DNA of 64,000 nt from Vermamoeba vermiformis (Eukaryota). Location of the stretch: assembly GCA_045837725.1 (NCBI GenBank), contig JBEWZL010000151.1, positions 1 through 64,000 of the forward strand. The letters run 5' to 3'. Numbering within the stretch: the stretch's first letter is position 1; every line of letters begins with the position of its first letter. Position numbers and translations under genes: made by a program. This document shows, in pieces, positions 44,451-59,767 of the stretch. Under the pieces are notes generated by a model. The model made no database searches, was not told the origin of the DNA, and worked only from the letters and a program-made list of their open reading frames with translations.

Positions 44451-44786
44451 TCTGATCATGGACAACCCATCCTACGACAGTAGTAATTTTAAATCCTTTT
44501 AAAGAAGTCTGCTTATGATCAATAAAGTCAAATTTGTTACAAATCGCGTAAATGAATTAGCGTTTGTTAATCAACTCGCGAGAAAATTTTCTGTCTACTA
44601 GTAATCCGATTATCGCGAAATCAACCACAACTACACATACGTAGAGAATATAATACCTACGTATTTGTGAATACTTCTGCCAGTCGGCAGCTTTTCATTT
44701 CGGATTAAGGTATTTCGAGCACTCTATAAATAAGTATTACAGTAAATATTACAAAAATTATATTAATACATTATAAAAATATCCAG

Positions 44787-46397
44787 ATGTCTTTGAATGA
44801 TTTTCCAGAGGAGCTGATCGAGTTAACCCTGTCGTTCATAAAATCGCATAAAAAAAGACGAATAGCACGGGCAGTATGCAAAAAATGGCTGCAATATTCT
44901 GGCATAGTGTATTTTGATATTGATATGCCATTACGACACGAAATTCAATCGATCAGAGAAACTTTTAGCAGATGCGCTCAATTATTCAGCTTAAAAATTC
45001 GCAAAGCGGACAAATTTAAATACGAAGATTATAATGAGCTATTTTACAACTTAACGCATATGATTTCTCTGGAAATCTCGCTCCTTCAAAAACCTTGGAT
45101 CGCCGCGAATGAATCTGGCATGATTAAGCTCGACCAACTCACCAACCTACAGCGCCTAGTAGTACCAGATATTAATGTCAGCATTGGATCAGTAATATTA
45201 CCATATTTGACGCATTTAGAAGTTTCAAACGTGATATTTACGAATCCAAACAGTTTGCCGAATCTAGAATATTTTTCTCTTAACCACAATGAAGCTGATA
45301 GTACAGTATATCCAACAATACCAAAATTGTCAGAATTTAGATATAAAAGCAATCAAATTGGTGATCATGACTTTGTACAAAATCTTCGAGCCCTGCATCT
45401 ACCGAGGATCAAGCAATTCAAAGACATTCCATTTCAAAACTTAGAAGACCTTCGAGTAGAAGATATCAGTGATATTGAAAGATGCGAAAAGTTGACTAAA
45501 TTGGCGGTTGCTGAATTACGAACTGGAAGTCCGATCCAGTCAGCAACGAATCTGCGAGATTTGACTTTGGGATCCGCCACTCGTTTCCCGGAAAATTCAT
45601 TATCATTCTTGGAGAATATGAAGCAGTTGAATTCTTTTCGATGGCTCACTTACAATCCAGACACTAGCCGCAACGGAGAATTTTTGAACTATCTAAATCC
45701 AGACACTTTGACACGCTTGACTTTTGAAATTTGCGCCAACGAAGTTCATAATAGAATAACGCTATTCACCAACTTACAGCGTTTAAACATTTGCACGGAA
45801 TACGAGCCAGATCTAGAAAGTTTATCAAATTTATCAAAGCTGACGAAACTAGTTGTATCAGCGGATTATTGTCGCGTCAATATGCACTGGGTTACTAGTT
45901 TAACCTCATTACAGCATTTAGAGTTGACTTATACTGACGAAGACGAACAACTGGATCTCAACAATTTGACGAATCTGACCTCGTTACAGATCGACCCAGA
46001 GAATTCTATTCGGCCTTTGCCTAATTTAACCAAATTGCGAAATCTACATATAGAAGCAGCGCAAGGCTATACATTCTTATCAAATCTGACAAAGCTGACT
46101 TCCTTGCATATATCGCACAGTACCATCGCACCGATCGATCAGGTGACCAAATTGCGAAAACTCCGCAAATTAACGTTAAATCTCTCATCGAACGAACAAC
46201 TCGCGGCATTGACAGCTCTGCAAAAGCTCACAGAGCTCTTCGTGTGGAACAGATCTAAAGTTGTTCAACCTGACACTTTGACACTTTTGACACGTTTGCA
46301 GACTGTTGGAATGTCCATGCAAAGTGCACAGCACTGGTCTCCAAAACATTCACCGGACATTGCCCAAAAACTTCCGTATGCTGTTTGGTTTGCTTAG
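44787..46397 (+). CDS. Intronless F-box/LRR protein
   Basis: LNDFPEELIELTLSF..ARAVCKKW, followed by many LTxLxxL repeats. Confidence 0.85.
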   Translation: MSLNDFPEELIELTLSFIKSHKKRRIARAVCKKWLQYSGIVYFDIDMPLRHEIQSIRETFSRCAQLFSLKIRKADKFKYEDYNELFYNLTHMISLEISLLQKPWIAANESGMIKLDQLTNLQRLVVPDINVSIGSVILPYLTHLEVSNVIFTNPNSLPNLEYFSLNHNEADSTVYPTIPKLSEFRYKSNQIGDHDFVQNLRALHLPRIKQFKDIPFQNLEDLRVEDISDIERCEKLTKLAVAELRTGSPIQSATNLRDLTLGSATRFPENSLSFLENMKQLNSFRWLTYNPDTSRNGEFLNYLNPDTLTRLTFEICANEVHNRITLFTNLQRLNICTEYEPDLESLSNLSKLTKLVVSADYCRVNMHWVTSLTSLQHLELTYTDEDEQLDLNNLTNLTSLQIDPENSIRPLPNLTKLRNLHIEAAQGYTFLSNLTKLTSLHISHSTIAPIDQVTKLRKLRKLTLNLSSNEQLAALTALQKLTELFVWNRSKVVQPDTLTLLTRLQTVGMSMQSAQHWSPKHSPDIAQKLPYAVWFA

Positions 46398-47369: not shown

Positions 47370-50300
47370 TTATTTTTTGCTCCAATCAGCTTTGATCATG
47401 TCCGAAAGTTTTTCCGCCATTGCAAAAGTCAAGTAGACCGTGTTAGCATCGACTGAAAAAAAAATTGGTTAGATCCGGATTTGTTTCCAAATTTGGTAAA
47501 AGGCGTACTTTGTGTAGCGAAGGCTGATGCATCGACCACGCGAACATTTGCAGTTCCTCGAACAACTAACTCGCTGTCAGTACAATCACCAACACGACAA
47601 GTACCAGTTGGATGCCATCCGACTCCGAGATCTTTTTCAATGTACTCGTCGAGATCTTGACCTGCCGCGGGAGATACAATGCCGAGATTGTATTTTTGAC
47701 CGAATGGCGTGTTTGTGATGAGATCGATCATCTTGGTCAAAAGTTTTTTCATGACAGCGCGATCGGTGTCACTCAACTTAGTGACATTATAATCAATAAG
47801 AGGCCTATAAGATATATTACTATAATACATATTAATTATGAGAATATTACTTGTGGAAAATGCTGGGTGAAGTTATCGTCACGGATCCTTCTCTGGCTTC
47901 AGGGAACAAATTGACGAGCAAAAATGAAGCACCGGGAATACCCGAGAATATACTCGATGGATTTCCCATAATAGGTTGAATGTCATATAGTGCGTATTGA
48001 CCTTCCCAGAGATAAATTTGCATGTCTGTAATGCCTGGCGCGTTGAAACCGGATGCCAAGTGCGCACTCACTCTGCGAGCCAAAAATATTAGGACTATAA
48101 TGTCTTTATATATTATATCTATGTAACTTACGGATAAGCTCCGTTGACGAGTTCAAGGGTTGGATTTGTTTGGCCAAATTTGTCAAAGTCAGCTCTGGAC
48201 GTGAACGGGAATCGAACGGATGTGTTGAACAAAAGTCGAGCTGAAAAATGCTCCCATAAGTGCTTGCCTAGATATATTGATGTTACTAACAGTCTATAGA
48301 TAATGAAGTATTATAATACTTACCGACATGAGGGTTGTGAGCCACGACTTTAATTCCGAGCGGATCCAAATCATTTTTGTCGCCAACGCCACTGACTTGA
48401 AGCAACTGAGGAGTTCCGAATGCACCACCAGCAATAATAACTTCCTAAAACAAAAATAGTTAGACATTGTTAAATTCAAAGAAAAGTTGTCAAGCTTTCG
48501 AATCTGGAAGATCAGCTGAATTAAAAAAAAGAGAAAGTGATTGCGTAGCGCGCAACCTGAGGCAAAGATTACCAGACCTGCAACGCAGGCCCAGTAACCT
48601 TAAATCCGAAGTATTATTGAATTGTTTGCAAGGCATACAAGCTCAACGGTGGCGGTTTCTTCTTGAAAAACGACGACTGTTAAAACGATGAAGCGCGGAT
48701 ACAGAGCACCTTCTCGATTGATTATAGGCGCAAATGAACTTTGAATTGTCAACCGACAATGTTCTCACGAAAAATTATGGTTCCCTATCTATTTTAGCCC
48801 TGACAAAACAACCCACAAAATGTATGCGAGATTGATCGAGATTTCGTGCATGTCGCTGGTTTGTGGCCACAAAAAAAAGGCAAAAAATAAAAAGGATTGT
48901 AGGCCCGGGTGCGAGTTCCACGCACATCCACTCGAATTGTAATTTGTTCCCTTAGTTGAAATCACCGAAGTGACAGACGAGGGGGCTATTATTGCCCAAC
49001 GCAGGCCTACATCCAATACAGGGGCAAGCAATTGCTTATTTTCTTGTATTTAGGTCAGAACGATTTTTGTTTTGGTTTTTGTGGTTGAACCCATCCACAA
49101 ATTGGAAAATTCAGAATCGCGGAAATGTACGGTGATCGTTGATTAAAATTTCGTGCGCCATCATAATACGTAAAAGTTAACATGGTAATGTGACATACCT
49201 TATTTGCATAGGCAGTGACGACGCGATTGGTAGTCAGATCGAAGTACTCGACGCCCTTAGCAACGTTGAACGATGATTTAGAATCAAATATAATTCTAAG
49301 AACGGGGCACCCAGGTTTCAAGAACAGATTGGGCCGTTGTTGGACAGCAGGTGTCAAATAGGCACTTTCGGAACTGACACGTGTCTGAGGTGACAATCGG
49401 TCAGTTCGATTCTGTCTGTAACGGAATTTCTGCCACAACGCAACTCCACTTCGTCTAGTAGCCGGCAAGTAGATTAATTCGCGCCAAGTTTTTGAAATTT
49501 CAAGTCACGTGTACGTACTGTGTAGGGTCGCCATTCTGGTCCGGCGAATAACCTCCGAAGAAACTGTCGTTGACGAGAGTGTTCAAATAATCAAATGTAA
49601 AATCTTCGAAGGCTTCAACAACGGGTCCGTTGATTTGTACTGGGCCACCCCTGATTCATGAACGAATTTAGAATCGAAATTTCATTAGAATCTTAGTGCG
49701 TACTTTCCGTGCCAAGCGCGGCATTGAGCAGGAGTAATTCCAGTGATATTAGGACTGTCGTAATAACAATAATGGTCTTCCATCTTCTTGAAGTAAGGAA
49801 GCAGATCCGCGTACTGCCAGCCTTGCGGCCATTGATTCAAAATTGAAGGACTTGGTCTTCGTGCTGATGCTCCGTAGATTTGAGACGTTCCTAATATAGC
49901 CATAATTATATTATGCTTATTAAGGTAGTACATGAATTAATTACCTCCTAATCCTTCGTAGCGAGGAGAATACACCATCCGATTATTCATGCCAGGCTGG
50001 GGAACGCTTAAATAACCTGGATCATGCGTGCTAACGAAATTAAAATTCTTCGGCAAGAAATTAAAGCCCGGAGCAAAGGGTTGTGGCGCTTTAGGGCCTA
50101 CAATCAAAAAGTTAATTTGACAGATCCTTGATCGAGGATAGGTATACTTTTACAAACCTTTGTCTAATGCTAAAACGGTCCATGAAGGATTTTCTGATAA
50201 TCTTGAGGCTACAGCGCCTCCTGCAGTGCCGACACCTGTAAAAATCTTTTAGATCCACACCGCGGTTTTATTTTTCGGTTTATTGCTTTATAATATTTTT

Positions 50301-59695: not shown

Positions 59696-59767
59696 ACCAA
59701 CGTAGCTCAGTTGGGAGAGCGCAATACTGAAAGAGTGAGGTCGCGGATTCGATCTCCGCCGTAGGTA
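59696..59767 (+). tRNA. tRNA-Phe(GAA)-like gene with an aberrant anticodon arm (pseudo-tRNA or tRNA-derived RNA)
   Basis: D arm TAGCTCAGTTGGGAGAGCG, CTGAA loop, T arm GCGGA-TTCGATC-TCCGC, acceptor ACCAACG/CGTAGGT, T-run terminator near 59785. Confidence 0.65.

Follow-up and report, generated by a model that had tools for sequence, protein, structure and literature searches.

Positions 48894-49014 of a 64,000-nucleotide window of the Vermamoeba vermiformis genome (the window is the whole stretch of DNA analysed, positions 1 to 64,000 of contig JBEWZL010000151.1, assembly GCA_045837725.1) contain a 121-nt element, read on the minus strand, within an intron of a GMC-oxidoreductase gene. This element is one copy of a multi-copy family that is present in at least two related organisms and of which some copies are found in RNA. 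We favour, at a probability of about 0.5, the reading that it is a small dispersed repeat resembling a miniature inverted-repeat transposable element (MITE) or a short interspersed nuclear element (SINE). A first-pass annotation, made from the sequence, had described it as a cloverleaf RNA with a terminator like that of RNA polymerase III (Pol III), and as a candidate new class of RNA resembling tRNA, Y RNA or vault RNA. The case for such a class is weak and it is not the likeliest reading: the element matches no known family and paralogues exist, but these paralogues are repeat-like, no covariation is found and no discrete RNA is seen.

Members of the family are known from RNA reads of organism A, which belongs to the same species, and from contigs of related organisms, so that the copies described here are not a genome-wide count. 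In the organism-A RNA run X21, of which 13.0 million records were read (paired complementary DNA, or cDNA; 151-nt reads), 49 reads are placed on a 901-nt stretch, 46 of the 49 fitting in part only, and a share of 0.88 of the placed read sequence continues into unlike sequence. Thirteen of these reads have an identity of 99% or more, 11 are at 95-99%, 18 at 90-95% and 7 under 90%. The read depth is greatest over 48899-48945 (about 15-23) and amounts to about 7 over 48946-49007. It is zero in the neighbouring bins 48853-48883 and 49039-49069, as it is over the whole of 48729-48883 and 49039-49193, and no read of the element is therefore traceable to the window's locus with its flanks.

Reads and contigs together delimit a core common to the family, at about 48899-49014 on the minus strand, with two conserved ends and a variable middle. 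The conserved 5' block (48956-49014, minus strand; covered by organism-A reads from about 49007 to 48956) holds the 5' strand of the closing stem, a GGGC/GCCC arm and a UUCG hairpin. The variable middle (48939-48955, minus strand) is replaced by other, partly longer sequence in the paralogues. The conserved 3' block (48899-48938, minus strand) combines CGAG, a GUGCG/CGCAC hairpin and the closing stem's 3' strand. Fifteen reads depart from the window's sequence at 48899; on the strand of the element, T and about 25 A follow before these reads run into other sequence. Eighteen depart at 48938 (7 reads) or 48939 (11 reads) into AT-rich sequence, and five depart at 48956 into a different, longer middle, which rejoins the 3' block. 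Two reads link 48899 to 49010 via TA, as head-to-tail units or a circle would, and TA also follows the 3' end of one paralogue (15 reads). In organism A, at least 3-4 sequence variants with other flanks occur in the RNA reads. The related organism B (Logan contigs X6) shares 48985-49014 in differing contexts, the sequence beyond 49014 continuing either into the orthologous upstream flank, to 49126 with 5 differences, or into unrelated sequence, while a third X6 contig shares 48955-49014 and diverges beyond. Since these contigs have different upstream flanks, organism B has at least two loci. The flanks of the paralogues are unrelated to those of the window's copy and their middles are unrelated or longer. 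The search for paralogues proposed in the first-pass annotation has thus been answered positively, in the reads of organism A and in organism B.

If we assume that the family is a dispersed repeat, it would consist of non-autonomous mobile units of about 115 nt with inverted-repeat ends, one copy of which would have landed inside a pre-existing intron of the GMC-oxidoreductase gene, helping to make this intron oversized. The cloverleaf would then be a by-product of transcription in the pre-messenger RNA (pre-mRNA), the terminal inverted repeats giving the closing stem and short internal palindromes giving the arms. Both the mobility of the family and its mode of spread are inferred. TA stands between head-to-tail units and also beyond the 3' end of another member, which suggests insertion into TA by cut-and-paste, but the long A-run after one member would suit retroposition; the mode may be either cut-and-paste, MITE-like, or retroposed, SINE-like.

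The same read picture is also what an RNA gene family with retro-copies would give, which weighs against the dispersed repeat. Such a multi-copy family of small non-coding RNA genes, transcribed on their own (Pol III-like, ending at the T-run) or processed from the intron, is an alternative that we consider possible, if on balance unlikely. Its RNA would fold into a four-way junction with a closing stem of 9-13 bp, and some of the paralogues would be retro-copies. The boundaries at 49014 and 48899 are sharp, as RNA ends would make them, and the member followed by T and about 25 A resembles a retro-copy of an RNA that ends at the stem. Stems are located within both conserved blocks, the variable part corresponding to a large internal loop. 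On the other side, run X21 shows neither reads with defined ends nor the accumulation of read starts or ends that a discrete RNA would give. This library of paired 151-nt cDNA reads is ill-suited to an RNA of 120 nt and would under-sample it, so that the missing discrete species is weak evidence. A narrower form of this alternative, a class of small structured RNA, not described before, about 112-121 nt long, ending in a U-tract and encoded by several genes, of which the window's copy would be active with its own terminator, is rather improbable. So is the claim, made jointly with it, that the A-tailed member would be a retro-copy revealing both that the RNA exists and where it ends.

Fold, strand and putative terminator of the element

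The minus-strand sequence and the stems given in the first-pass annotation are exact: the sequence runs from 49014 to 48894, 31 of the 31 proposed pairs are standard pairs, and a run of five T (T5) follows. The 121-nt element as first delimited (48894-49014, minus strand) is supported by this sequence, by the energy of its structure, by the rarity of its closing duplex and by its forming a domain of its own in the whole-intron fold. The closing stem comprises 13 bp, with one bulged A and one G-T position, and encloses three arms: GGGC/GCCC with a 7-nt loop, CUCG/CGAG around GUCAC-UUCG-GUGAU, and GUGCG/CGCAC with a 7-nt loop. The energy of this proposed structure is -38.1 kcal/mol and the minimum free energy (MFE) of the element -40.0 kcal/mol. 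The element is also GC-rich, as had been noted (52% G+C versus 39% in the window), and the intron said to measure about 750 bp comprises 754 nt.

The closing stem is far beyond chance. Its duplex, at -20.8 kcal/mol, is matched on the minus strand of the window at 0 of 9,123 sampled start points and on the plus strand at 1 of 9,123; pairing in the stem has a probability of about 1.0, and the stem persists in both the MFE and the centroid structures of the whole-intron fold. Other GC-rich inverted repeats of a like kind are scarce in the window, where only 3 exact ones (9-mers or longer, at most 200 nt apart) are found, none of them similar. The GGGC/GCCC arm (pair probability 0.8-0.99) and the GUGCG/CGCAC arm (about 0.8) are firm as well, and these probabilities for the closing stem and two further arms argue for an RNA gene family. 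The remainder of the cloverleaf fares less well: the CUCG/CGAG stem has a pair probability of 0.09 and the GUCAC/GUGAU hairpin of 0.3, and the MFE structure pairs the middle of the element differently. As a whole, the fold of the element is not exceptional, with a z-score of -1.86 on the minus strand and 12 of 200 shuffles equally good. The G-U pairs and the cUUCGg loop had been taken to fix the strand; this claim fails, as the fold of the plus strand is the better one (-42.3 kcal/mol, z -3.24) and folding energy therefore cannot settle the strand of the element. Both the modest z-score and the better fold of the opposite strand count against an RNA gene family. Regarding the reads, most have their first mate on the minus strand (in the 3' block about 23 of 31, in the 5' block 8-10 of 9-11), in a library whose strandedness is not established, and one of four reads of a paralogous minus-sense messenger RNA (mRNA) is opposite in direction, so that no conclusion on the strand follows from read direction.

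The T5 run read as a Pol III-like terminator is present at 48893-48889 (minus strand), adjoining the 3' end of the element, with two more T runs within the next 25 nt. It is kept in the orthologous contig of the closest relative (X5), and its position directly after the stem is in line with an RNA gene family. However, runs of five or more T number 7 in 751 nt of the intron sense strand, compared with 2.8 per kb in the window, and the frequency of such runs in the intron makes the T5 weak evidence of termination. Moreover, an A-run replaces the T-run in one paralogous context, in which the terminator is therefore not a feature of the family. Of the features of type 2 Pol III genes, the window's copy has the T5 after it, while the most-read paralogous context has no T-run, a point against RNA genes ending at such a run. 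An end-to-end stem followed by a T-run is, in an AT-rich intron, insufficient for a Pol III call, and copy number and flanks should be considered first.

Five variants are found in the paralogous reads. Two of them (48918 and 48920) are located in the loop of the 3' arm. One at 48905 (9 of 26 reads) replaces a C-G pair in the closing stem by C/A, one at 48973 (9 of 11 reads) replaces the U-A pair in the UUCG hairpin by C/A, and an insertion at 48911 (5 of 31 reads) bulges the 3' arm. For these three stem variants no compensating change is listed, in data that are thin and in which the two sides of a pair are not always in the same molecules. The read variants give, on these thin data, no support for selection on the fold, and three disruptive changes with 0 compensatory ones speak against an RNA gene family.

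A proposed dispersed repeat weighed against its alternatives

The searches for known RNA families were made with Rfam 15, and their negative results cover the 4,227 families that it holds. Rfam reports no match to the element at E-values up to 10, on a 501-nt stretch or on a 146-nt stretch (48880-49025), which agrees with the statement of the first-pass annotation that the element could not be matched to the known RNA kinds listed there. Y RNA, vault RNA, 7SK, the small nuclear RNAs, the signal recognition particle RNA, RNase P-MRP and the small ribozymes all return 0 matches at E up to 10. For transfer RNA (tRNA), the Rfam model RF00005 has no match on the element and ARAGORN reports 0 genes there; for 5S ribosomal RNA (rRNA), which forms a three-way junction with conserved loops, the model has no match on 48880-49025 at E up to 10. 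A C/D-box small nucleolar RNA (snoRNA) has a C box, RUGAUGA, near its 5' end and a D box, CUGA, near its 3' end, and direct reading against this consensus finds neither box in the 121 nt of the element. An H/ACA snoRNA comprises two hairpins with an H box between them and an ACA three nucleotides from the 3' end. The element does have an ACA at 48900-48898 but forms one long end-to-end stem, not a hairpin-hinge-hairpin structure. Lastly, inspection by eye against consensus sequences finds neither internal A and B boxes nor a TATA-like element at -30 that would be convincing, which is a further point against an RNA gene family.

These results bear on two of the alternatives. A degenerate relic of a known Pol III gene, that is a pseudogene of 5S rRNA or tRNA or a SINE of such origin, is very improbable: the element resembles a 5S gene in its length (about 120 nt), its closing helix and its T-run, but the 5S_rRNA and tRNA models have no match at E up to 10 in the 146-nt search and ARAGORN reports nothing, which leaves this explanation near-refuted. 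A 5S-derived origin had been suggested by a few short motifs that looked 5S-like, a likeness that the 5S model does not bear out. As for an RNA gene family, having no Rfam match it would be new. If that explanation were true, it would add a structured small RNA without an Rfam counterpart to a lineage in which, to our knowledge, few non-coding RNAs are known besides the housekeeping ones.

The dispersed repeat is supported by the conserved end blocks, the variable middle, the unrelated flanks and the non-random terminal inverted repeat, together with the lack of a match to any RNA family tested and with a whole fold that is neither significant nor better on the proposed strand. If correct, it would make the element an ordinary example of intron enlargement, with stable hairpins scattered through pre-mRNAs, and would be useful mainly for the repeat annotation of the genome.

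Several observations weigh against it. Around the window's copy a target-site duplication cannot be recognised, neither side carries TA, and no A-tail follows; the missing duplication and tail count against both the MITE and the SINE modes. The outer 4 bp of the closing stem (GGAU/AUCC) extend past the boundary shared with the most-read paralogue, and in a passive copy such pairs would have to be due to chance, which is unlikely. In the contig of the closest relative (X5, 48827-49086), the element has 1 change in 121 nt, located in a loop, and the flanks have 4 substitutions and 2 indels in 139 nt. This contrast, of 1 change in 121 versus 6 in 139, favours an RNA gene family and leans weakly towards constraint on the element, with a difference that is not significant. 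No second copy is found in the 64-kb window by blastn at word size 7, the best non-self matches being of 12-19 nt at E 6.3, which suggests a possibly low copy number. A 22-nt segment from the 5' block matches nothing in viral contigs or in metagenome contigs (0 matches in each), and no transposase- or LINE-related partner (LINE, long interspersed nuclear element) was identified.

A covariance model of the element, built on the proposed structure and run with filters off, scores 158.7 bits on the element itself and 11.5 bits (E 0.69) at the next place in the window, and so yields no second copy there either. A pattern of the two termini separated by a gap of 70-100 nt retrieves eight metagenome loci (L001-L008), which were rejected as chance because they have a G+C content of 60-71% and no similarity between the termini. 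A literature search on introner-like elements and MITEs, made by subject and not with the sequence of the element, returned general papers, and the portions of them available to us contain nothing on the family of the element.

Host intron and neighbouring features

In the host intron (48445-49198, minus strand; 754 nt), the donor is GTATGT and the branch site, CTAAC, precedes the TAG acceptor by 15 nt; these splice signals appear fungus-like. The gene is a GMC-oxidoreductase on the minus strand: Pfam GMC_oxred_N is matched as far as profile position 176 by the exon that ends at 49199 and from profile position 183 onwards by the one that starts at 48444, and a later exon matches GMC_oxred_C. 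The donor side of the intron is marked by three spliced reads from a paralogous mRNA. The RNA reads over the host exon (49194-49255) all have 3-5 differences and are spliced to a slightly different next exon, and thus point to an expressed GMC-oxidoreductase paralogue whose intron occupies the corresponding position. In run X21, no reads are found for the gene of the window itself.

The intron itself provides a further explanation, namely that the element is a structural module of the intron or has no function. As a module, its stem domain and the surrounding A-rich/U-rich pairing would shorten the effective distance between the donor and the branch site of this unusually long intron, as the "zipper" stems of long yeast introns do. 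The element does fold as a closed domain in the MFE and centroid structures of the whole intron, and a 22-nt inverted repeat, 73% complementary, brackets it. This explanation leaves the paralogues with other flanks unaccounted for, and the whole intron is no more structured than its shuffles (z -0.85, with 2 of 20 shuffles equally good); we consider it quite improbable. The bracketing repeat is imperfect (49063-49084 and 48867-48888); on the minus strand its upstream arm is rich in A and its downstream arm in T, and it could represent chance pairing of homopolymer-rich sequence. A perfect 14-nt palindrome is located at 48860-48873.

The same intron contains a second structured island at 48551-48686 (minus strand), which holds a 17-bp hairpin with several G-U pairs. 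The z-score of its fold is -3.01 on the minus strand versus -0.09 on the plus strand, and it has no Rfam match below E 4. In the wastewater RNA run X8, a 164-nt contig (depth 15.9) consists of adapter, the exact 136 nt of the island (100% identity) and adapter. The organism-A RNA reads over 48512-48635 all have at least 7 differences, so that paralogues exist for the island too. The island was rejected as a relative of the element, the two having only an 11-mer in common and a local alignment score of 22 compared with a shuffle mean of 21. A third stretch of the intron, at 49052-49169 (minus strand) and 38 nt upstream of the element, resembles a C/D-box snoRNA, with AUGAUGG close to its 5' end, the CUGA motif twice and a terminal pairing of 5 bp. 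Its best Rfam comparison, with snR61/Z1/Z11, reaches 17.4 bits (gathering score 45; E 3.4 on 501 nt, E 1 on 146 nt) and is not significant. If this stretch were real, the intron would host a snoRNA.

Elsewhere in the window, a tRNA at 59696-59767 (plus strand; 42.7 bits, E 1e-05) is the sole Rfam match at gathering thresholds. It is not called by ARAGORN, two of its acceptor-stem positions are marked as non-standard pairs, and a run of eight T (T8) is located about 18 nt downstream. It may be an unusual tRNA gene or a degenerate one. A single-exon open reading frame at 44730-46397 (plus strand; 555 codons) comprises an F-box-like N-terminus (Pfam F-box_5, E 9e-4) and leucine-rich repeats (LRR_14, E 4.4e-11).

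Comparison with known element and RNA classes

The fungal introner-like elements, as described, run to hundreds of copies, exceed regular introns in length and have stable predicted secondary structures (PMC3609843). The element resembles them in being multi-copy, in its stable predicted structure and in belonging to an intron longer than regular ones, and differs in that theirs comprise the whole intron including the splice sites (PMC3609843), while the similarity of the element ends at 49014 and 48899. Since the shared unit stops far from the donor at 49198 and the acceptor at 48445, the element is not an introner-like element in the sense of that description.

Compared with the Y, vault and tRNA-like RNAs, the element has a similar length of about 100-120 nt, pairing of its 5' and 3' ends in a long stem, a U-run at its 3' end and several copies. 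It differs from them in having no match to any of their Rfam models at E up to 10 and no discrete RNA in run X21, and inspection by eye against the consensus shows no B box that convinces.

The element behaves like a MITE or a SINE and is a candidate member of either class, the window's copy having no recognisable target-site duplication and no A-tail. Dispersed copies with unrelated flanks, which are common to both classes, are found in the RNA reads and contigs. Compared with SINEs and retro-copies, the window's copy lacks an A-tail, has no recognisable internal A and B boxes by eye against the consensus, and has no Rfam match to tRNA, 5S or 7SL RNA. The likeness to them lies in the size, in the conserved head and tail with a variable body, in the T and about 25 A that follow one member, in the T-run after the window's copy, and in a 3' block read about three times as deeply as the 5' block, as 5'-truncated copies would give. 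MITEs of the type considered here prefer TA as target site; the window's copy differs from them in having neither TA nor another clear target-site duplication, and its family in having no known autonomous partner and no second copy in the 64 kb. The element resembles MITEs in its size of about 115-121 nt, in its terminal inverted repeats of 9-13 bp, which are far beyond chance, and in its location in an intron, and the family resembles them in its several copies with conserved ends and a variable interior and in the TA found between units and after one 3' end.

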